From contig JBBSHF010000002.1 of the NCBI GenBank assembly GCA_038253355.1, positions 1 through 58,963 on the forward strand: 58,963 nt of DNA, in the 5' to 3' direction. Under the pieces are notes generated by a model. The model saw only the letters and a program-made list of their open reading frames with translations, was not told the origin of the DNA and searched no databases. Position 1 is the first letter of the stretch. Each line of letters begins with the position of its first letter. The position numbers and the translations under genes are program-made. This document shows, piece after piece, positions 1 to 8,110 of the stretch. This DNA is from Candidatus Limnocylindria bacterium. GTDB taxonomy: Bacteria; Chloroflexota; Limnocylindria; QHBO01.

Positions 1-1
1 C

Positions 2-109
2 TTCAACCGCTTCGACCCGACCTCGCCGTTCGGCGGCTACAAGGAGTCCGGGTACGGCCGCGAGGGCGGGCTGCACGGCCTGGCCGCCTACCTGAAGCTC
101 GACGCATGA
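2..109 (+). CDS. aldehyde dehydrogenase family protein, C-terminal end (partial, begins upstream of window)
   Basis: Frame 2 reads FNRFDPTSPFGGYKESGYGREGGLHGLAAYLKLDA-stop, a typical ALDH C-terminus. Its stop TGA 107-109 overlaps the next ATG (ATGA). Confidence 0.75.
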   Translation, partial: FNRFDPTSPFGGYKESGYGREGGLHGLAAYLKLDA

Positions 110-1080
110 GCCCGCGCACCGTTGCGAAGTCGAGCTCGCGCGCATCGGTCCTCAAGGAGACAGCGCAAGCTCCGCTGGCCACTACCGCGAACGGCACGTC
201 GGCGGAGCGGATCGGCGTCCGCAAGACGTACAAGCTGTACATCGGTGGTGCGTTTCCGCGGACCGAGTCGGGGCGTGCCTACGAGGTCTTCGACGCACAT
301 GGTCGGCTGCTGGCCAACGCGTGCCGCGGTACGCGCAAGGACATCCGCGAGGCGGTGCGCGCGGCACGCAGGGCGTTTCCCGGGTGGGCGGCCCGGACCG
401 CGTACAACCGATCGCAGATCCTGTATCGCATCGCCGAGCTGATGGAGGGGAGGCGCGACCAGTTCAGCGCCGAGGTCCAGGCGGCCCAGGGGGTGGGGCA
501 CCGACGGGCGCTTCGCGAGGTGGATACCGCCATCGACCGATGGGTCTGGTACGCCGGCTGGGCCGACAAGTTCACCCAGGTCGTCGGATCGGTCAACCCG
601 GTCAACGGCCCGTACTTCAACTTCACGGTGCCGGAGCCGACCGGGGTGGTCGGCCTGGTCGCTCCCGAGGAGTCGTCGCTGCTCGGATTGGTCAGCCGCC
701 TGGCGCCGGTGATCGTTTCCGGGAACGCAGCGGTGGTCGTGGCAAGCGAGACGCGGCCATTGCCGGCTGTGACGCTGACCGAGGTGCTGGCCACCTCCGA
801 CGTCCCGGGCGGTGTGGTGAACGTGGTCACCGGGCTGCGGCGAGAGCTGGTTCCCACGCTCGCCGGCCACATGGACGTGAATGCGCTCGATGCCTTTGGC
901 CTGACGCCCTCCGACGCTGCCGCCGTCGAGGAGACCGCCGTCGAGAACGTCAAGCGCCTCATCCGTCCGCCGGCGGACGGGCTCGACCGCTACGACTGGT
1001 TCGGCGAGCGTGCGCAGTCGCCGTACCTGATCGGTGAGTTCGTCGAGACCAAAACGGTCTGGCATCCCATCGGGAGCTAG
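106..1080 (+). CDS. aldehyde dehydrogenase-like protein, short form lacking the catalytic Cys region
   Basis: The 324-aa ORF has an ALDH N-terminal/NAD-binding signature (KLYIGG, RKDIREAVRAARRAFPGW, EPTGVVGLVAPEESSL, GVVNVVTG). It has only one Cys (ANACRG) and no ELGGK/catalytic-Cys block. It is ATGA-coupled to the upstream ALDH. Confidence 0.75.
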   Translation: MSPRTVAKSSSRASVLKETAQAPLATTANGTSAERIGVRKTYKLYIGGAFPRTESGRAYEVFDAHGRLLANACRGTRKDIREAVRAARRAFPGWAARTAYNRSQILYRIAELMEGRRDQFSAEVQAAQGVGHRRALREVDTAIDRWVWYAGWADKFTQVVGSVNPVNGPYFNFTVPEPTGVVGLVAPEESSLLGLVSRLAPVIVSGNAAVVVASETRPLPAVTLTEVLATSDVPGGVVNVVTGLRRELVPTLAGHMDVNALDAFGLTPSDAAAVEETAVENVKRLIRPPADGLDRYDWFGERAQSPYLIGEFVETKTVWHPIGS

Positions 1081-1084
1081 ACAA

Positions 1085-1200
1085 CCGCTTCGCCCGGCCG
1101 CTTCGCCGCTTCGCCGCTTCGCCGCTTCGTCCCTTCGTCCCTTTCGTCCCTTTCGTCCCTTCGTCCCTTTCGCCGCTTCGCCGCTTCGCCCCTTTCGTCC
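1085..1200. repeat. tandem 8-9 nt minisatellite (CCGCTTCG and TCCCTTTCG units, about 14 copies)
   Basis: Direct reading gives ccgcttcg x5 (the first separated from the rest by cccgg), then tccc(t)ttcg x5, then ccgcttcg x2 and a final cccctttcg. It starts 5 nt after the ALDH-like stop. Confidence 0.9.
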
Positions 1201-1208
1201 TGCGCTGG

Positions 1209-1455
1209 TCCGTCATTCATCTGGGAATGTGCGCGGACCAGGCCAGCGGCAGCATCGGTTTCTGATTCACGTGGGAATGTGCGTGGACCGGGCCGGCGGC
1301 AGCATCGGTCCGTCATTCACCTGGGAATGTGCGCCGACCAGAGCCCGTGCTCACGTCAGTCCAGACGGCTTCTGTGAATGAGAGCTGGCGGGCAGCGGCT
1401 GGGAGCTGGCGAGCACCAGCCCCGACGTCCAGTCACATTCTTCAGTGAATGACGG
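1209..1455. repeat. structured repeat module, copy A (three ~50-nt subunits plus tail; 1264-1451 aligns with copy B)
   Basis: CATTC-N6-GAATG boxes at 1214-1229, 1264-1279 (one arm degenerate), 1314-1329 and 1436-1451. A GGACCG..CGGTCC hairpin follows the second box; the first subunit's hairpin is degenerate. Offset to copy B is a constant 941 nt. Confidence 0.9.
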
Positions 1456-1469
1456 GGACGAGATCCAAG

Positions 1470-2156
1470 CTACTGGCGACCTCGTGCCCGGATCCACAAG
1501 AGCCCGTCGCGGTCCACTGGTCGCCCCTGGCGGATAGCGGCCAGCACATCACGGGAAGACGCGGGCAACGCCGCCTTGATGAGCATGAGGTGAGCGGCAA
1601 CCGCCGTCCGGTTTCGCTCGGTGTCACGGAGGCCCATCACGAATGCCACCGACCGTTCGTGTCGTTGCTGGAGACCGTCGCGCTTCAGGTGACCGCGGCG
1701 CAGCTGGGCCTGGAAGTCAGAGAGCGCCGACTCGAGCTCAATGTGCACTCCTGCCTCGGACAGGAGGAAGAGCATGTCGGCGGCCTGGTTGCCGTCGTCG
1801 CCGGTCGGCGCTTCGAGAACGATTCTCCACGATGGGTGTGCCAGCGCTCGAATCGCCTCGGCCATGGGTAGCTGGCCGCTGTCCCGCAGCCCGACGCCCG
1901 TACCTGGGTATGCCCGCAGCGGCAGGTCGCTGCCGAGTGCCGCGAAGATGCGGACGACGATCGAGATCGACCCGCGGACGTCTCCGGCCTCCAGCCGTGC
2001 GACCGACGCCTGCGATACGCCAGCGCGGCGGCCGAGCAGCGCCTGCGTCCAGCTAAGCCCGATGCGGAGGCTCTTCGCTTCCACACCGAGCCGCTGCATC
2101 TGTTGATGGAGCTTGCTGAGTGCGGCATCGACCGGGCGTGTACGAGGAGAACCCAT
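1470..2156 (-). CDS. XRE-family helix-turn-helix protein with C-terminal PD-(D/E)xK-like domain
   Basis: The N-terminus LSWTQALLGRRAGVSQASVARLEAGDVRGSISIVVRIFAALG is a classic HTH_3. The C-terminal half carries ADMLFLL..(9 aa)..HIELES, a D..ExE nuclease-like signature. GC3-rich codons support this strand. Confidence 0.7.
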   Translation of the reverse strand: MGSPRTRPVDAALSKLHQQMQRLGVEAKSLRIGLSWTQALLGRRAGVSQASVARLEAGDVRGSISIVVRIFAALGSDLPLRAYPGTGVGLRDSGQLPMAEAIRALAHPSWRIVLEAPTGDDGNQAADMLFLLSEAGVHIELESALSDFQAQLRRGHLKRDGLQQRHERSVAFVMGLRDTERNRTAVAAHLMLIKAALPASSRDVLAAIRQGRPVDRDGLLWIRARGRQ

Positions 2157-2177
2157 GCTGGTGATGGTTGCACGCGA

Positions 2178-2196
2178 CCGATTACTGGCCGATTAC
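2178..2196. promoter_or_regulatory. direct repeat CCGATTAC-tgg-CCGATTAC upstream of the XRE gene start
   Basis: Two identical 8-mers with 11-nt periodicity lie 22-40 nt upstream of the ATG at 2156 (minus strand). Confidence 0.35.
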
Positions 2197-2202
2197 GTCG
2201 CG

Positions 2203-2393
2203 CTTACTCACCTGGGAATGTGCGCGGACCGGGCCAGCGGTAGCATCGGTCCGTCATTCACCTGAGAATGTGCGCCGACCAGAGCCCGTGCTCACGTCAG
2301 TCCAGACGGCTTCTGTGAATGAGAGCTGGCGGGCAGCGGCTGGGAGCTGGCGGTCACCGGCCGTGACGTCCACTCACATTCTTCAGTGAATCG
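2203..2393. repeat. structured repeat module, copy B (direct repeat of 1261-1453)
   Basis: By eye there are about 14 mismatches over ~188 nt versus copy A, including an ~83-nt identical core. Boxes lie at 2205-2220, 2255-2270 and 2377-2392. The copy ends 4 nt before the NRAMP-related stop codon. Confidence 0.9.
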
Positions 2394-2396
2394 GCG

Positions 2397-3716
2397 TCAA
2401 TGGACAAGGCCGAGCCAGCCGGCGATCGTCGAGCCGAAGAGCACCAGGGTCAGCAGCGTGATCAGCCCGGTGAGGCCCCAGGCGACCACGTTCAGCCACA
2501 GCGGGTTCACGTGGCGGCCCATGATCCGCGGATTGTTCACCAGGCGCAGCATGAAGATCAGGATGATCGGCAGCAGGATGCCGTTGAGGTTCTGGCTGAC
2601 CAGGATCAGGGCACCCAGCGGCATGCCGGGGAGCAATACCACCACCGCTCCGATCACGATCAGGGCGGTGTACAGGCCCATGAAGACGGGCGCCTCGCTG
2701 AAGCGCCGCGACACGCCCGACTCCCAGCCGAAGGACTCGCACACGGTGTAGCTGGTGGTCAGCGGCATGACGGTCGCAGCCAGGACCGATGCACCGAACA
2801 GCCCCAGCGCGAACAGCAGCTCGGCGAAGCGGCCGGCCACCGGCGCCAATGCGCGGGCCGCATCCTGCGCGCCGTTGCGGAGTTCGACGCCGGTGCCGAA
2901 CAGGGTGGCCGCCGTGACGATCACGATGAACAGGGCGATGACGTTGGTCCAGACCGCCCCGAGCACCGCATCGCCGCGTTCGTAGGTGAGCTCCTCGGGC
3001 CCCAGTCCCTTATCGGCGACCGAGGATTGCAGGTAGAAGAACATGTAGGGGGTCACCGTGGTGCCCACGGTCGCGACCATCAGTAGCAGCACGCCAGGCT
3101 CGAACGAGACCGATGGAGTGACCAGCCCGTGTCCCACATCGGCCCAGTTGGGTCCTGCCATGAACGCGCTGACGATGTAGGCGACGAAGACGACCGCGAC
3201 CGACAGAAAGACGCGCTCCACCACTCGATAGCTGGCGAAGACGACCAGCGCCCAGATGCCCGCCGCCACGACCGGCACGCTGATCCAGCGCGGGATATGG
3301 AAGATCTCGAGTGCCGCGGCGGCGCCGGCAAACTCGGCGGCGATGTTCGAGCCGTTGGCGATCAGCAGCACGACCATGGCGAACAGGGTCCAGCGGATGC
3401 CGAAGTCGTCACGGATCAGGTCGCCCAGGCCCTGCCCCGAGATGGCGCCCATGCGCGCCGCCATCTCGAGCACCACGATCAGCATGATGGTCGTGATCGG
3501 CAGGATCCAGAGCATGCTGAAGCCTGTCTTCGCGCCGAGCACGCTGTAGGTGAAGATGCCGCCAGCGTCGTTGCCGGCGAGCCCGGCGATCAGCCCCGGG
3601 CCGAGCACGCCAAGGAAGGCCAGGACGCCCGACCGATGGACGCGGAAGTTCGGCAGCCGCTCGCGCACCGAACGCTGTGCGCGCCGGATCGGGCGCGGCA
3701 GCGCCAGGCGGCTCAC
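2397..3716 (-). CDS. NRAMP-related divalent cation transporter (non-canonical metal site, NRMT-like)
   Basis: A 439-aa polytopic protein with NRAMP architecture. The TM1 motif is NDAGG (3558-3572) instead of DPGN. TM6 is GTTVTPY (3045-3065) instead of A..MPH. Confidence 0.8.
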   Translation of the reverse strand: MSRLALPRPIRRAQRSVRERLPNFRVHRSGVLAFLGVLGPGLIAGLAGNDAGGIFTYSVLGAKTGFSMLWILPITTIMLIVVLEMAARMGAISGQGLGDLIRDDFGIRWTLFAMVVLLIANGSNIAAEFAGAAAALEIFHIPRWISVPVVAAGIWALVVFASYRVVERVFLSVAVVFVAYIVSAFMAGPNWADVGHGLVTPSVSFEPGVLLLMVATVGTTVTPYMFFYLQSSVADKGLGPEELTYERGDAVLGAVWTNVIALFIVIVTAATLFGTGVELRNGAQDAARALAPVAGRFAELLFALGLFGASVLAATVMPLTTSYTVCESFGWESGVSRRFSEAPVFMGLYTALIVIGAVVVLLPGMPLGALILVSQNLNGILLPIILIFMLRLVNNPRIMGRHVNPLWLNVVAWGLTGLITLLTLVLFGSTIAGWLGLVH

Positions 3717-4981
3717 CGCTCGTCCGCCGGCTCGAAGATCTCCGGCAGCCGCTTGCGCCAGCCCTCGCCGAGCGCGCGCTCGAAGGCATCGTCGACGGTC
3801 ACCATGCCCAGCATGCGGCCCTCGTCGTCGACGACCGGCAGGGCCAGCAGGTTGTAGCGGGCGATCGCCGCGCCAACCTGCTCGGCATCCAGGCCCACCT
3901 CGACCGAGATCGGTTCATGACGCATGAACTCGCTGACCGGCGTCTCGGGCCGAGCCACGACCAGCCCGCGCAGGGTCACGGTGCCTTCAAGATGCCCGTC
4001 GGCATCGGTCACGTACAGGTAGTAGGCGCGGTCGGCGGGCGGGGCGAGTGCGCGCAGGCGGTCGATCACCTGCTGCGCCGTCTGGTTGGGCGCGATGGTG
4101 ATGAAGTCGGTCGTCATCAGGCCGCCCGCGGTCTCCTCGCCATAGGCGAGCAGCTCGCGCACCTCATCCGCCTCGGCGGGCTGCATCAGGCTGAGCAGCT
4201 CGGCCTGGCGCTCCTGCGAGAGGTCGGCCATCAGGTCAGCGGCCTCGTCCGGGCCCATCTCCTCCAGGATGTCGGCGGCGCGCTCGGGTGGCAGCGCCTC
4301 GAGCACGTCGACCTGGTCTTCGGCGTCGAGCTCCTCCATGACGTCCGCGGCCCGTTCGTCGTCGAGCGAGGCCAGGATGCCGGTCCGATCCCGCGGAGCG
4401 AGCTGCTCGACGATGTGCGCTACATCGGCGGGATGCAGCGTGGAGAGCGCCTGGTGTGGCACGCGCAGCTTCAGTGAGCTGACGCTCGATTCGACCGGGT
4501 CGACGTCCTCCCACTCGATGTAGTTCTCGACCTCGAGGCGAAGGGCGCGGGCCAGCCGCTCGCCGGTGCCCGACAGGCCGAGCCGCCGCAGGATCCCGGC
4601 AAGACCCACGTCCACCGCCACCAGCCGGATGCGACCGTGCACCGGGGCGAGCTGGATGTCGTTGACGCGCACGATCTTGCGCCCCTCGACGTCAACGATC
4701 TGCTTGTCCTGCAGGTCGAGCCACAGGCGGATCTCGTTGGGACGCCGGCGGAACGAGGTGATATTGATGCTTGAGGTGCGCAGGCGCGCGCCGGAGGTGT
4801 CGATCTCGCTGACGTCGGACCAGGGCAGGAAGATGTCACGTCCGCCGGCGACGCGCACCACCAGGCCGGTGACCGGCGGGTACTGCTCGCCGAGCGCCAC
4901 GATCAGGTCGCGCACCTTGCCGAACGGCTCGCCGTGACGGTCGAGCACCGGCTTGCCGATGATCTGGCTCAGAAAGAGCAT
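3713..4981 (-). CDS. soluble PRC-barrel / MgtE_N / CBS-pair protein (MgtE cytoplasmic module without membrane domain)
   Basis: N-terminal PRC-barrel-like repeats (GKPVLDRHGEPFGKVRDL; IVDVEGRKIVRVNDI). Acidic MgtE_N helices (DDERAADVMEELDAEDQVDVLEALPPERAADILEEMGPDEAADLM) and a CBS pair follow. Start chosen at the ATG with GAGGTGG 7 nt upstream. The stop overlaps the transporter start by 4 nt. Confidence 0.8.
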   Translation of the reverse strand: MLFLSQIIGKPVLDRHGEPFGKVRDLIVALGEQYPPVTGLVVRVAGGRDIFLPWSDVSEIDTSGARLRTSSINITSFRRRPNEIRLWLDLQDKQIVDVEGRKIVRVNDIQLAPVHGRIRLVAVDVGLAGILRRLGLSGTGERLARALRLEVENYIEWEDVDPVESSVSSLKLRVPHQALSTLHPADVAHIVEQLAPRDRTGILASLDDERAADVMEELDAEDQVDVLEALPPERAADILEEMGPDEAADLMADLSQERQAELLSLMQPAEADEVRELLAYGEETAGGLMTTDFITIAPNQTAQQVIDRLRALAPPADRAYYLYVTDADGHLEGTVTLRGLVVARPETPVSEFMRHEPISVEVGLDAEQVGAAIARYNLLALPVVDDEGRMLGMVTVDDAFERALGEGWRKRLPEIFEPADER

Positions 4982-5216
4982 GAAATGACCACCTCGCTCT
5001 CGAAGGGTGCTGCGCACGCCAGCGGGTGGTCTCGGGTGACATCGCGGGGTTCCTGCGACACGTCATTGCTCGACGCTAAGCGATCACCTCGCGCACCCAC
5101 CATTCGCCACGGGCGCGGTCATTGCGTGTACTGGGTCCGGCGTCCACGTTGGTCGCGTGTTGCCTCGTTGCGTGATTGGTTGGCCGCGAATTGCCGCGAG
5201 TGACGGCCGCGGGCAC

Positions 5217-6358: not shown

Positions 6359-8110
6359 ATGCCTCGACCGCGTTCTGCTCCACGCAGCGCCGATGCCGCC
6401 ATCAGCAACGGCGACCTGGCGCGTATCTTCAGCGAGATCGCCGACATGCTCGAGATCATGGGCGAGGTGGTCTACAAGTCGGTCGCCTACCGCCGCGTTG
6501 CCGATGCCGTGGAGCGCTATCCCGATGACGTCGCCGCGTTGTTCCGACGTGGCACGCCGCCGAAGCTGCCCGGCGCCGGCGCGGCGCTGACCGCCAAGCT
6601 GGCCGAGCTGGCCGAGACCGGCCAGCTCGAGTACCACGCGCGGCTGCGTGCCCAGGTACCCGATGGGTTGCTCGACATGCTGCGCATTCCGGGGGTCGGG
6701 CCACGCACCGTCAAGATGCTGCACGGCGAGCTGGGAATCGACTCCGTCGACGCGCTGCGCGTCGCGGCCGAGCAGGGCCTGCTGCGTGGCCTGAAAGGGC
6801 TCTCCGCCCGGACCGAGGAGAACGTGCTGGCCGGCATCAGCCGTATCGAACAGCGCGGCAGTCGCCTGCTGCTCCACGACGCCGATGCGCTGATGCAAGG
6901 GCTGCTCGCCCGCCTGGGCCAGGTGCGCGGCGTGGTGCGCATGGAGGCCGCCGGCTCGCTGCGACGGCGGCGTGCCACCATCGGCGACCTCGATCTGCTC
7001 GCGGCGGTCGAGGACGCGGCTGCGCTGATCGCCGCGCTGGACGGCCTGCCGGAGGTCGATCACATCGTCTCTGCCGGCATCGATAAGTCGAGCATCGTGC
7101 TGCGTGACGGACCGCAGGTCGACCTGATGGTCTGCCCGCCCGCCGCGTGGGGCACCCACCTGGTGCACTTCACCGGCAGCAAGGGGCACAACGTGGCCCT
7201 GCGCGGACGCGCGCTGGCACGCGGGTGGTCGCTCTCCGAGAAGGGGTTCAAGGTGGTTGACAGCGGCGAGCTGCTGCTCTCCGACAGCGAGGAGGAGGTC
7301 TACGCCCGGCTCGAGATGGACTGGGTGCCCCCCGAGCTGCGCGAGGACAGCGGCGAGATCCAGGCGGCCGCCGAGCGCTTACTGCCCCGACTGCTGACCC
7401 TTGACGACGTGTGCGGCGATACGCACACCCATTCCGACTGGACCGATGGCGTCGACTCGATGGGGGCCATGGCGCGCGCAGCCCGCGCGCTGGGACGCGA
7501 GTGGATGGTCCTGACCGATCACTCGCCCTCGCTCGGCATCACGCGCGGCCTTTCGCGGGAGCGCATCGCTGAGCAGGGCGCCGAGATCGCCCGGTTGAAC
7601 GGGGAGCTCGCGCCGTTCCGCATCCTGCATGGCACCGAGATGGAGATCCGCTCCGACGCATCCCTGGATTACCCCGACGACCTGCTCGCCGGCTTCGACG
7701 TCGTCGTCGCCAGCGTCCACACCGGCCGTGGGCAATCGGTCGAGCAGCTGACCGCGCGGGCGCTGTCGGCGATCGAGAACCCGCACGTCGACATCCTGGC
7801 CCATCCCACCGGAAGGATCGTCAATCGCCGAGAGCCGATGGTGCTCGACTGGCCGCGCGTCTTCGAGGCCGCCGCGCGTACCGGTACCATGCTCGAGCTC
7901 AACGGCAGCCCGCGGCTGGACCTCGACGATGTGCTGGCGCGCGCGGCGGGCGCTGCCGGGGCGCGGCTGACGGTGTCCAGCGACGCGCATCGGACCGAGG
8001 AGCTGGGTCAGCTGCGTTACGCGGTCTCCATGGCGCGCCGCGCCTGGCTGACTCCCGGCCAGGTCCTCTCGACGCGTTCCGCCGACGCGCTGCTCGAGCT
8101 CGTCCGATGA
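6359..8110 (+). CDS. polX: DNA polymerase X family protein with C-terminal PHP domain
   Basis: N-terminal HhH/Pol-beta-like region (NGDLARIFSEIADMLE, GVGPRTVKML, GSLRRRRATIGDLDLL). C-terminal PHP motifs (GDTHTHSDWTDG, TDHSP, SDAHR). The start is uncertain (6326 GTG, 6350 or 6359 ATG); 6359 fits the TAGAAT-N7-ATG leaderless pattern. Confidence 0.85.
   Translation: MPRPRSAPRSADAAISNGDLARIFSEIADMLEIMGEVVYKSVAYRRVADAVERYPDDVAALFRRGTPPKLPGAGAALTAKLAELAETGQLEYHARLRAQVPDGLLDMLRIPGVGPRTVKMLHGELGIDSVDALRVAAEQGLLRGLKGLSARTEENVLAGISRIEQRGSRLLLHDADALMQGLLARLGQVRGVVRMEAAGSLRRRRATIGDLDLLAAVEDAAALIAALDGLPEVDHIVSAGIDKSSIVLRDGPQVDLMVCPPAAWGTHLVHFTGSKGHNVALRGRALARGWSLSEKGFKVVDSGELLLSDSEEEVYARLEMDWVPPELREDSGEIQAAAERLLPRLLTLDDVCGDTHTHSDWTDGVDSMGAMARAARALGREWMVLTDHSPSLGITRGLSRERIAEQGAEIARLNGELAPFRILHGTEMEIRSDASLDYPDDLLAGFDVVVASVHTGRGQSVEQLTARALSAIENPHVDILAHPTGRIVNRREPMVLDWPRVFEAAARTGTMLELNGSPRLDLDDVLARAAGAAGARLTVSSDAHRTEELGQLRYAVSMARRAWLTPGQVLSTRSADALLELVR

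Follow-up and report, generated by a model that had tools for sequence, protein, structure and literature searches.

Two arrays of repeated palindromic boxes, together with the gene between them, were found to constitute a dispensable, invertible cassette in an uncultivated lineage of soil Chloroflexota. The window, i.e., the complete stretch of 58,963 nt that was analysed, carries this array-gene-array segment between an aldehyde dehydrogenase (ALDH)-family gene and an NRAMP-family transporter gene, and the segment is present, absent, or inverted at the same junction in relatives. Judged from its sequence, the enclosed gene encodes an XRE-type helix-turn-helix (HTH) protein, and this protein most likely binds the boxes as its cognate sites. 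The arrays are accordingly read, with slightly better than even confidence, as clusters of cognate binding sites (operators, possibly engaged in looping), and deletion, inversion, and gene conversion as further consequences of their repetition. The features of the region are as follows.

106..1080, plus strand: short ALDH-family gene, 324 aa (Pfam Aldedh, E = 1.8e-39)
1085..1200, no strand: minisatellite with units of 8/9 nt (CGCTTCGC / CCCTTTCGT), located after the ALDH stop and before the array (repeat search)
1210..1259, no strand: extra 50-nt array sub-unit extending copy A, box at 1215-1228 (repeat search, TRF)
1262..1450, no strand: repeat copy A, the array downstream of the XRE gene (repeat search, MAFFT, box scan); boxes at 1265-1278, 1315-1328, and 1437-1450 (the last in inverted sense), half-box at ~1366-1379
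1470..2156, minus strand: XRE gene, 228-aa protein with HTH (aa 22-82) and C-terminal domain (aa ~85-228) (Pfam, AF2)
2157..2205, minus strand: leader/promoter stretch from the last box to the start codon, with three GTAA/TAAG motifs ~11 nt apart
2203..2391, no strand: repeat copy B, the array upstream of the XRE gene (repeat search, MAFFT, box scan); boxes at 2206-2219, 2256-2269, and 2378-2391, half-box at ~2307-2320
2397..3716, minus strand: NRAMP-family transporter gene (Pfam Nramp, E = 1.8e-89), the other conserved border of the junction
3713-5017: gene with MgtE_N, CBS, and PRC domains (Pfam) before the NRAMP gene

The sequence-only reading of the window had claimed two near-identical direct repeats, and a repeat search, with which MAFFT agreed, returned a 189-nt pair (1262-1450 and 2203-2391; 93% identity, 941 nt from start to start). 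Its estimates by eye of about 14 mismatches and an ~83-nt identical core came close to the direct count of 13 mismatches and a perfect run of 87 nt (1325-1411). Identity between the copies ended sharply on either side of the unit, and mismatches were unevenly placed, with all 13 in the 102 nt that lie beyond the core; a mismatch-free run of 87 nt has a probability of ~0.002 at the overall mismatch rate and ~7e-6 at the rate outside the core. Such a core is in line with a conversion tract. Between the copies, the 687-nt gene at 1470-2156 is the sole convincing one, and the copies do abut the 3' ends of both neighbours: copy B ends 5 nt from the NRAMP stop codon (2397-2399), and the gap after the ALDH stop codon (1078-1080) is filled by the minisatellite, the extra sub-unit, and copy A. 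The extra sub-unit, to which copy B has no counterpart, contains the box match ATTCATCTGGGAAT; a 73-nt unit occurs in three copies (1217, 1267, and 2208), and TRF gave a period of 50 with 2.4 copies for the copy A region. The minisatellite is specific to the window and absent at the equivalent place in loci L005, L039, and L046. The feature resembling terminal inverted repeats that had been noticed on the copies is likewise real, with arms that are 82% (1310-1331/1434-1455) and 86% (1434-1455/2251-2272) complementary.

Short-read contigs end within the repeat cores, and arrays without the gene exist (L036, L037, and the orphan modules described below), as would be expected if the unit were a generic dispersed intergenic repeat (REP/MIRU-like) or a chance segmental duplication and the bracket a coincidence of the assembly. 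This is extremely improbable. Two independent Logan assemblies from other SRA runs yielded contigs matching the window at 2237..1280 (99.3%) and 2295..1382 (100%), each covering the XRE gene and portions of both repeat copies and both reproducing the copy-specific mismatches; the repeat-gene-repeat arrangement is therefore not an assembly artefact. No third copy of the unit was found by BLAST in the 59 kb of the window, and no near-identical copies turned up besides the two flanking ones. A ubiquitous REP-like element, named beforehand as the outcome that would refute the cassette, was not what related sequence contained: phased arrays numbered 12 in 481 kb (0.0 in shuffles), and an XRE-family gene adjoined ten of them. 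The bracket furthermore recurs in at least ten orthologous loci and, with other box sequences, beside paralogues located elsewhere.

Each repeat is an array of 14-bp palindromes (ATTCAC-N2-GnGAAT) phased ~50 nt apart, with the consensus A[T/G]TCAC-NN-GTGA[A/C]T on the sense strand of the gene; the boxes in the window read ATTC(C/T)CAGGTGAAT. Box scans gave 15 matches in the window (5.8 expected), 14 of which lay inside the two arrays, and nine in L003 (0.56 expected), all of them in three tri-box modules with an exact spacing of 50 nt. A scan of metagenome contigs for the two-box pattern of the window hit six loci, all unrelated simple repeats without a homologue of any window protein, so that no additional copies of the arrays were obtained there, and a literature search on Limnocylindria found no paper on repeats in this class.

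It is very unlikely that the arrays are cis-acting RNA or transcription elements (hairpin terminators, insulators, or small-RNA units) whose linkage to the XRE gene is secondary. Compared with shuffles, the region has a somewhat stronger tendency to fold (plus strand z = -2.05, minus strand z = -3.15), arrays are often located at the 3' ends of convergent genes, and the L028 unit, GTCCCGC-TGG-GCGGGAC with GTTT after it, looks like the hairpin of a terminator. However, no Rfam 15 covariance model matched at E ≤ 1 in 900-2700 on either strand, and no intrinsic-terminator pattern was detected in 1000-2500. A 6-2-6 palindrome would leave a 2-nt loop, which is too small, and mismatches between half-sites are uncompensated; the half-sites are individually degenerate (ATTCCC vs GTGAAT), which suits recognition of half-sites by a protein more than it suits an RNA stem. 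Across paralogues, conservation extends to DNA palindromy and 50/51-nt phasing rather than to a fold, and the box type follows the recognition helix of the HTH.

Boxes were present on both sides of the gene in the orthologous loci L003/L010, L006-L009, L039, and L046, with L005 being a weaker case due to degenerate boxes on the NRAMP side. A BLAST self-match between flanks was absent in L005-L008 and L046 and reached 73% identity in L003 and 68.5% in L009; the spacers have thus mostly diverged, and boxes and phasing are the conserved part. The ALDH-proximal arrays of L005 and L039 are homologues of copy A and are oriented towards ALDH as it is, and the orientation of the NRAMP-proximal box relative to NRAMP is kept in L005, L036, and L039. 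Phasing at 50/51 nt was also observed beside distant paralogues elsewhere (both flanks of L020; L012, L014, L015, L019, L026, and L028), whose arrays carry different palindromes; in the acs-linked paralogues, the downstream array is more constant than the upstream one. Loci with ATTC-type boxes encode an HTH reading GWTQ...SQA(S/T)V(A/S)RLE and those with AGTC-type boxes one reading GMSQ...SQTSVGRLE, while the palindromes GTTGC-N7-GCAAC (L026) and GTCCCGC-N3-GCGGGAC (L028) accompany very different recognition helices. As far as these alignments indicate, box type changes together with the recognition helix, in clades that are few and phylogenetically nested. Tri-box modules also occur away from the gene as orphans (L003 15729-15842, L009 759-872, and L026 13686-14000); the 481-kb scan counted two and the window none.

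Several known classes of repeat-associated loci were compared with the segment, and the integron, CRISPR, retroelement, and partition classes were rejected. For an integron cassette or att-flanked element, a tyrosine or serine recombinase would be needed, and none is encoded within ~5 kb here or in relatives. The inter-box "spacers" of neighbouring units are 84-95% alike (period 50 nt, box 14 bp) and no cas genes are among the neighbours, unlike in a CRISPR array. A diversity-generating retroelement was dismissed since the 13 mismatches span all four bases with no adenine bias and no reverse transcriptase gene is among the neighbours, and a ParB/SopB-type partition locus since there is neither an adjacent ATPase gene nor a plasmid homologue. 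With respect to REP/REPIN-RAYT systems, the protein had no Y1_Tnp match; the repeats do flank the gene, and their dispersal amounts to the two orphan modules in 481 kb. With respect to MITEs, one 8-bp direct repeat surrounds the L009 module, on which there are no clear terminal inverted repeats.

Relatives were sampled at the junction through the ALDH gene, which converges on the XRE gene, serves as a conserved border on one side of the variable segment, and adjoins a cassette or an empty site in L003, L005, L007-L009, L021, and L036-L046. Orthologues in Limnocylindria MAGs are situated at the same ALDH/NRAMP (or MgtE) junction. The comparison with relatives that had been proposed for finding empty sites produced clean ones in L038 and L042-44; L036 and L037 have boxes without the gene (solo arrays), L040/41 have a different gene (MgtE) at the junction, and in L005, L039, and L021 the XRE gene is in the opposite orientation. 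L005, L040, and L042 differ in occupancy despite flanking proteins that are 91-98% identical, and a two-gene XRE-SemiSWEET segment between arrays occurs in both orientations (L005 vs L045). Of the earlier proposal of a cassette or insertion footprint, the cassette is thus borne out by empty sites, solo arrays, and inversions, but the att-like or MITE-like footprint is not: att-like or target-duplication flanks of a recent insertion are not supported, as phased box arrays flank the gene in essentially every orthologous locus. Its statement that no integrase or transposase is present holds within ~5 kb, where the neighbours are ALDH, NRAMP, MgtE_N/CBS, and ABATE/zf-CGNR genes.

The divergence of the XRE protein tracks that of the flanks at ~3 × their rate (ABATE/zf-CGNR diverges similarly fast), a pattern more in keeping with vertical inheritance and repeated loss than with an insertion of recent date. 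For L021 and L046, horizontal replacement of the XRE allele was considered and is not needed, as the protein evolves ~3 × faster than its flanks throughout. L021 remains odd in being truncated, inverted, and equipped with another box type. L046 has the flanks closest to those of the window (NRAMP 92%, ALDH 90%) and the same arrangement with arrays unlike each other; the near-identity of the copies in the window thus points to recent homogenisation.

The HTH of the encoded protein belongs to the XRE/Cro-C1 type, with Pfam scores above the curated thresholds for HTH_31 (E = 4.1e-8, 33.9 bits vs a cut-off of 27) and HTH_3 (E = 1.6e-6, 28.5 bits vs a cut-off of 23), both at aa 22-82. Profile searches of the PDB matched this domain to HipB, HigA, C.BclI, C.AhdI, and 434 Cro/cI, and Foldseek gave a TMt of 0.8-0.88 to HipB. 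The C-terminal domain of the window protein had no match in Pfam, NCBIfam, PHROGs, or PADLOC; the paralogue P0095 had a faint PADLOC REase_II match (E = 0.0035), and PADLOC and PHROGs otherwise returned HTH matches alone. Its AF2 model (pLDDT 92.5, pTM 0.87) has the element order H-E-E-E-H-E, in agreement with the alpha-beta-beta-beta-alpha-beta core of PD-(D/E)xK enzymes, and the top Foldseek matches in the PDB were almost all PD-(D/E)xK nucleases (R2 RLE, NucS/EndoMS, R.BspD6I, Bax1, McrC, and Hjc), although weak (best E = 4.7e-3, TMq ≤ 0.45). The domain is therefore predicted from the model to adopt a PD-(D/E)xK nuclease-like fold. Across 21 aligned members, E115, D127 (start of strand 2), E140 (in strand 3), R153, and K158 (in the helix after strand 3) are invariant and Q151 nearly so, while residue 142, the position of the lysine in the catalytic motif, is E or D. 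The resulting D...ExE arrangement (D127, E140, residue 142) would be a BamHI-like variant. The invariant acids together with the acidic residue 142 argue for catalysis, which a regulatory model does not need; on the basis of the model, the domain could be catalytic or could serve merely as an oligomerisation scaffold.

Among 1.84 billion proteins, 194 representative clusters were assigned to the family; nearly all of them combine the HTH with the nuclease fold, and none has a curated annotation. The exact 228-aa product was absent from the protein record, where a 209-aa call was present solely on two Logan contigs of ~0.9 kb. No relatives were detected in plasmid and phage collections (tblastn), and a family scan of IMG/VR contigs found no member. 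The GTAA/TAAG pattern upstream of the start codon recurs in L003, L005-L009, L020, L022, L023, L039, L045, and L046; a sigma-70 consensus promoter was not matched in 1000-2500.

From the fit between protein, boxes, and their co-variation, we infer that the protein binds the boxes and that this binding may regulate the gene or form a loop. Operators of 434-type XRE repressors are 14-bp palindromes. Dimers of the protein, a 434/Cro-like XRE HTH fused to a PD-(D/E)xK nuclease-fold domain, would occupy the boxes; the upstream array, ending 50 nt before the start codon, would be an autoregulatory operator cluster, and the downstream array a second cluster able to pair with the first when the protein oligomerises, so that the 0.94-kb gene would be looped out in the manner of OL/OR and lambda CI. 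Since the arrays are repeated DNA with boxes in both senses, they would also be recombination substrates. The perfect 87-nt core and an identity of 93%, which this lineage alone shows, would be due to gene conversion; solo arrays and empty sites in relatives would stem from recombination of one direct copy with the other, and inverted cassettes from recombination between boxes. Some observations count against the operator reading. A spacing of 50 nt corresponds to ~4.8 helical turns, which puts neighbouring boxes off one helix face, and arrays persist without the gene as solo arrays (L036, L037) or orphans (L003, L009, L026). The gap that holds the downstream array lies between convergent 3' ends and offers no promoter for regulation, and this, together with the constant downstream array of the acs-linked paralogues, leaves a plain promoter-operator logic incomplete. 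The 8-bp direct repeat around one orphan module resembles mobility more than regulation.

In a rival reading, considered rather unlikely overall, the ~120-190-nt box modules are non-autonomous mobile or recombinogenic elements of a RAYT/REPIN-like or nuclease-driven system. The HTH-PD-(D/E)xK protein would then recognise and cut the modules, the gene would be flanked by its own substrates as RAYT genes are by REPINs, and cutting at boxes would drive the insertion of modules elsewhere and the excision or inversion of the cassette. RAYT genes are documented as flanked by REPINs and vertically inherited (PMC3116915, PMC3337134). The invariance of the putative catalytic acids across the family, the nuclease identity of the fold matches, a repeat type of its own for each paralogue group, the orphan tri-box modules, the presence, absence, or inversion of cassettes between flanks whose proteins are 91-98% identical, and the two orientations of the XRE-SemiSWEET segment all speak for such mobility. 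The L009 module is a 147-nt block that is missing from the 92-93% identical L003 site and is bounded by an 8-bp direct repeat (GATCACTC) holding an ATCAC half-box, and six L003 and L009 modules align without gaps over 147 nt. However, the apparent copy number is low, the spacers of orphans are only weakly similar to the gene-flanking arrays and give no sign of recent copy-and-paste, and the 8-bp repeat is equally explicable by a microhomology-mediated deletion in L003. Loss and inversion are seen, but insertion is proven in no case, and the protein is not an HUH/Y1 transposase and has no family member on plasmids, phages, or IMG/VR contigs. A more far-reaching form, in which the protein is an active site-specific nuclease or recombination factor acting on the phased arrays and the whole a new self-contained DNA-rearrangement module, is doubtful. 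It would work in a RAYT/REPIN-like manner with an enzyme of restriction-endonuclease fold, persist vertically in Limnocylindria, invert or excise its own cassette, and seed tri-box modules at new places between genes with 8-bp duplications.

The protein family that emerges is small and restricted to its lineage, and its DNA counterpart is very regular, i.e., palindromic boxes every 50-51 nt whose sequence changes with the protein. For an uncultivated class that is nonetheless abundant in soil and freshwater, this provides a protein-DNA recognition code that is ready to be tested. The junction is also a natural case of a cassette being lost and inverted, and of gene conversion, through repeats at one fixed place in the chromosome. 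Should the nuclease domain be active on the arrays, this would be a second, mechanistically unrelated case, after RAYT/REPIN, of a vertically inherited gene living with its own repeats; should the protein only regulate, the two phased arrays around its gene would make an unusual arrangement of operators.

Among known systems, MITEs and solo-LTR-like dynamics share the direct repeats bracketing a gene, solo copies after loss, and one module bounded by 8 bp, but the 147-nt module here lacks clear terminal inverted repeats, a high-identity copy family, and a transposase, and the flanking arrays are ancient and conserved rather than insertion footprints. REP/REPIN-RAYT systems (PMC3116915, PMC3337134) have in common a single-copy, largely vertically inherited gene for a DNA-cutting type of protein, its own palindromic repeats flanking it, paralogues with different repeat families, and additional copies in intergenic 3' regions; their protein is an IS200/IS605-type HUH tyrosine transposase instead of an HTH-PD-(D/E)xK protein, and their repeats are REP doublets, whereas phased arrays of short boxes at low apparent copy number are found here. 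Controller (C) proteins and C-boxes of restriction-modification systems would be analogous in combining an XRE HTH with palindromic boxes upstream of a restriction-endonuclease-fold protein. Here, however, a single polypeptide carries both HTH and nuclease fold, the gene has arrays on either side, no methyltransferase is encoded within ~5 kb, and PADLOC gave weak HTH matches and a single faint REase_II match. In the F plasmid, the partition centromere sopC lies shortly after sopB and is a tandem array of 43-bp units that each contain a short inverted repeat; tandem units of ~43-51 bp with a palindromic box directly downstream of an HTH-protein gene are shared (L026, L028, and copy A), but the present locus is chromosomal, has no ParA-type ATPase partner and no plasmid homologues, occurs in several paralogous copies, and encodes a protein with a nuclease-fold domain. 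Compared with lambdoid and 434-type repressors (OL/OR), the clusters here are direct copies instead of mirror images, and their sites are spaced by 50 nt rather than adjoining. The C-terminal domain is predicted to have a PD-(D/E)xK fold where those repressors have an S24-peptidase or oligomerisation domain, and there is neither a prophage context nor a family member in phage collections. OL and OR are multipartite operators on both sides of the repressor gene that engage in long-range looping, and 186 CI and TP901-1 CI have flanking sites too. With these repressors the cassette shares the XRE/Cro-C1 HTH, 14-bp palindromic sites at about three per cluster, and one cluster at the promoter of the gene with a second ~0.9 kb away across it, and autoregulation would be expected by analogy.

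The two near-identical direct repeats that the sequence-only reading had placed around a single gene were recovered by a repeat search, and equally with MAFFT, as one 189-nt family (copy A, 1262–1450, on the ALDH side; copy B, 2203–2391, on the NRAMP side; 93% identity, 941 nt spacing), with similarity stopping sharply at both edges. Counted base by base, the copies differ at 13 positions and share a perfect 87-nt run at 1325–1411. All 13 mismatches fall within the 102 nt outside this core, so divergence of the copies is not uniform (probability of such a clean run ~0.002 at the overall mismatch rate and ~7e-6 at the outer rate). A BLAST search for further copies in the whole 58,963-nt window yielded no third one. 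An assembly artefact was ruled out by two independent Logan assemblies with contigs equal to 2237..1280 and 2295..1382, both of which span the XRE gene and parts of copies A and B. The repeats abut the 3' ends of both neighbours, as had been described: copy B ends 5 nt short of the NRAMP stop, and the gap after the ALDH stop is filled by a minisatellite, a sub-unit and copy A. In the related loci L005, L039, and L046, the minisatellite was not found at the same position. Both repeat copies consist of arrayed 14-bp palindromes of 6-2-6 form (boxes), and the features are as follows.

1085–1200: minisatellite of ~13 units of 8/9 nt (CGCTTCGC / CCCTTTCGT), right after the ALDH stop and ahead of the arrays
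1210–1259: extra 50-nt sub-unit preceding copy A
1215: additional box
1265, 1315, and 1437, plus strand: boxes of copy A (ATTCACGTGGGAAT, ATTCACCTGGGAAT, and ATTCTTCAGTGAAT, respectively)
near 1366/2307: half-box
1470–2156, minus strand: XRE gene, product of 228 aa with an XRE-type HTH at aa 22–82
2206, 2256, and 2378: counterparts of these boxes in copy B

The arrays hold 14 of the 15 box matches in the window (expected: 5.8). Neighbouring boxes are 50–51 nt apart, except for one step of 71 nt, and the XRE ATG lies 50 nt past the end of the last upstream box. The outermost box of each array is inverted relative to the others, and it is this box that had been noticed as a TIR-like feature (arms 1310–1331/1434–1455 and 1434–1455/2251–2272). 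That the arrays are RNA elements is very unlikely: folding of the repeat region is modestly better than that of shuffled sequence, there is no Rfam match to a structured RNA in it, a hairpin from a 6-2-6 palindrome would have a loop of just 2 nt, and each half-site is degenerate on its own, so the boxes resemble DNA sites for a protein more than stems of an RNA. Generic repeats are the least probable explanation; phased arrays of the box family of the window and L003 numbered 12 in 481 kb versus none in shuffles, and an XRE gene is next to ten of these. The stretch that separates the last box from the XRE start codon (2157–2205, minus strand) holds three AT-rich GTAA/TAAG motifs ~11 nt apart (e.g., GAGTAAGCGCGACGTAATCGGCCAGTAATCGG), a trio repeated in most orthologues and some paralogues (L003 9925–9990, L005 3850–3885, L039 1360–1385, L046 ~1975–2010). 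This stretch has no match to the sigma-70 consensus, and the motifs may serve as promoter or -10-like elements or be bound by another factor.

The C-terminal half of the 228-aa protein has no match in Pfam, NCBIfam, or PHROGs, and PADLOC returned a single faint REase_II match, on a paralogue. The AlphaFold2 model of this domain is confident (pLDDT 92.5, pTM 0.87), and its top Foldseek matches in the PDB are nearly all PD-(D/E)xK nucleases (R2 RLE, NucS/EndoMS, R.BspD6I, Bax1, McrC, Hjc), with weak scores (best E-value 4.7e-3). Five residues (E115, D127, E140, R153, and K158) do not vary within the family, and Q151 hardly does; D127 and E140 are candidate catalytic acids, at the positions expected for this fold. 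The family is small (117 clusters in a search of 5.8 billion proteins, 194 representatives in an exhaustive search), shares the two-domain architecture in almost all members, and is essentially restricted to Limnocylindria/Chloroflexota MAGs, with no members in plasmid, phage, and IMG/VR collections. No published description of the family or its arrays was found, the Limnocylindria literature retrieved being taxonomic and ecological. In some relatives, the XRE ORF runs into the downstream array (L039 1412–2248; L003 10640–10726), giving non-conserved C-terminal tails (proteins P0008, 278 aa, and P0023, 241 aa).

Orthologues occupy the same site as in the window in L003/L010, L007, L008, L009, and L046, with the gene order ABATE/zf-CGNR, then MgtE or MgtE_N plus NRAMP, then XRE, facing an ALDH pair. 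A 124-nt direct repeat (73% identity) brackets the XRE gene in L003, with three boxes (AGTYAC-NN-GTGACT) per copy spaced exactly 50 nt apart, and L009 is built likewise, its repeat being 68.5% identical. Recognisable boxes flank the gene on both sides in L006 (neighbouring genes not syntenic with the window), L007, L008, L039, and L046, and more weakly on the NRAMP side in L005. Since the spacers of these six loci are too diverged for BLAST, the conserved part consists of the boxes and their phasing. Box type varies together with the HTH: ATTC-type loci carry GWTQ...SQA(S/T)V(A/S)RLE, and AGTC-type loci carry GMSQ...SQTSVGRLE. The 93% whole-array identity is unique to the window and absent even in L046, whose flanking proteins are 90–92% identical; this restriction points to recent gene conversion, with the 87-nt core as the putative conversion tract.

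In the window (2397–5017), a gene for a stand-alone MgtE_N/CBS/PRC cytoplasmic domain overlaps the NRAMP gene start by 4 nt, and a full MgtE takes that position in the L003 clade. The short ALDH-family gene (324 aa) matches no more than the N-terminal half of the Pfam model and is preceded by a full-length ALDH with a stop/start overlap ATGA at 106–109; every relative keeps the pair (window 1–1080, L003 10820–13278), which may be one enzyme, either split or composed of two subunits.

Comparison of the ALDH/NRAMP junction among relatives, suggested earlier as a way to find empty sites, was carried out via ALDH homologues, independently of XRE, and sites without the gene were indeed obtained.

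L036: gap of 189 nt holding two boxes at 50-nt spacing, without gene
L037: gap of 102 nt holding two boxes, without gene
L038: 29 nt from stop codon to stop codon
L042–44: 13 nt from stop codon to stop codon
L040/41: full-length MgtE gene
L039: XRE gene in inverted orientation compared with the window (same strand as ALDH)

The XRE gene is also inverted in L005 and L021, and an XRE-SemiSWEET pair lies between arrays in either orientation (L005 versus L045). The orientation of the arrays themselves relative to ALDH and NRAMP is kept. Flanking proteins of L005, L040, and L042 are 91–98% identical, and the contents differ (XRE plus SemiSWEET, MgtE, and nothing, respectively). The MgtE of L040 (6932–8260) sits exactly at the spot of the XRE cassette elsewhere. 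The relics in L042 (CGGCGCATCGGTC, 6910–6922) and L038 (GGCGGCATCGGTC, 6925–6952) match the conserved spacer motif GCATCGGTC / GCAGCATCGGTC of the array units (window 1249–1259, 1299–1309, 2240–2250), which fits deletion between repeated units; a short relic may be either a deletion remnant or an ancestral seed of the arrays. XRE divergence tracks that of the flanks at ~3x the rate (33% versus 8–10% for window/L046; 13% versus 1–6% for L003/L009), so the locus history would need no more than vertical inheritance plus recurrent loss and inversion, and none of the loci compared demonstrates gain of a cassette.

Arrays were also found away from the XRE gene (orphan modules).

L003 15729–15842: tri-box module between deoC and a mazE-PIN pair
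L009 759–872: tri-box module
L026: array beyond acs, in inverted orientation

In L009, the module forms a 147-nt block (742–888; 734–896 with its bounding repeats), absent from the 92–93% identical L003 sequence and bounded by an 8-bp direct repeat, GATCACTC, that occurs once in L003 (847–854); the repeat could be either a target-site duplication or the mark of a microhomology deletion. The repeat contains an ATCAC half-box and overlaps the stop codon of the adjacent 942-aa gene. Across 147 nt, six modules of L003 and L009 can be aligned gap-free, with boxes in register and spacers partly similar. The stretch L003 15724–15846 (= L010 15754–15876) is made up of 50-nt units in tandem (2.4 copies) that have hybrid boxes (AGTCACCTGTGAAT) and lies between the deoC stop and the mazE-PIN toxin-antitoxin pair; this junction is variable, being occupied by another small gene in L021 and, in L037, by a DSBA gene.

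Distant paralogues (32–43% identical) reside at other conserved sites, many between nitrilase and acetyl-CoA synthetase genes, with their own 50/51-nt arrays and palindromes unrelated to the window boxes.

L020: arrays on both flanks
L026: palindrome GTTGC-N7-GCAAC
L028: palindrome GTCCCGC-N3-GCGGGAC
L012, L014, L015, and L019: palindrome pairs 50–51 nt apart

In L012 (9962–13486) and L016 (5740–9775), the acetyl-CoA synthetase gene lies between two paralogues; in L026 (9914–14050) one paralogue is absent, yet 51-nt arrays flank acs on both sides in inverted orientation. The nitrilase-XRE-acs regions of L014 (Methylomirabilota bin) and L025 (Steroidobacteraceae bin) share 85–90% nucleotide identity and gene order with Chloroflexota loci, and these contigs are probably mis-binned Limnocylindria. 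One paralogue group has flanking elements whose shape recalls REPINs, ~100-nt units with terminal inverted arms instead of tandem 50-nt units (L022 315–416 and 1200–1300; L023 251–350 and 1181–1277; L027 3757–4060; arms CTGATCACAGTGCAC ... GCACTGTGATCAG in L022 and L027, GTTATG..ATGACCGAT in L023).

The anatomy of the arrays, their association with the gene, the co-variation of box and HTH, and the dynamics of the locus are observed; binding, regulation or looping, and the role of the nuclease fold are inferred. As the reading with most support, we lean towards the arrays being the cognate sites to which the encoded HTH protein binds. The protein would occupy the boxes of both arrays, the upstream array acting as an autoregulatory operator cluster and the downstream one as a second cluster, which may associate with the first to loop out the intervening gene, as lambda OL/OR do; repeated boxes in two senses would also predispose the locus to gene conversion, deletion, and inversion. 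The invariant acidic residues, the location of arrays in convergent gaps without promoter, and the 8-bp repeat around the L009 block count against a purely regulatory role and keep alive RAYT/REPIN-like or nuclease-driven rearrangement, which we nevertheless regard as unlikely; that array-gene-array constitutes a new nuclease-based self-rearranging module is similarly doubtful.

Among known systems, RAYT membership was rejected for want of an HUH transposase, a partition locus for want of ParA, and an R-M controller system for want of a methyltransferase within ~5 kb; CRISPR and DGR were rejected on their defining tests. An integron or att element was likewise rejected, as there is no recombinase within ~5 kb. 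The layout of the arrays is reminiscent of sopC-type centromeres, the lifestyle of the array-gene system resembles that of RAYT/REPIN (PMC3116915, PMC3337134), and in mode of working it is closest to multi-operator XRE repressors.
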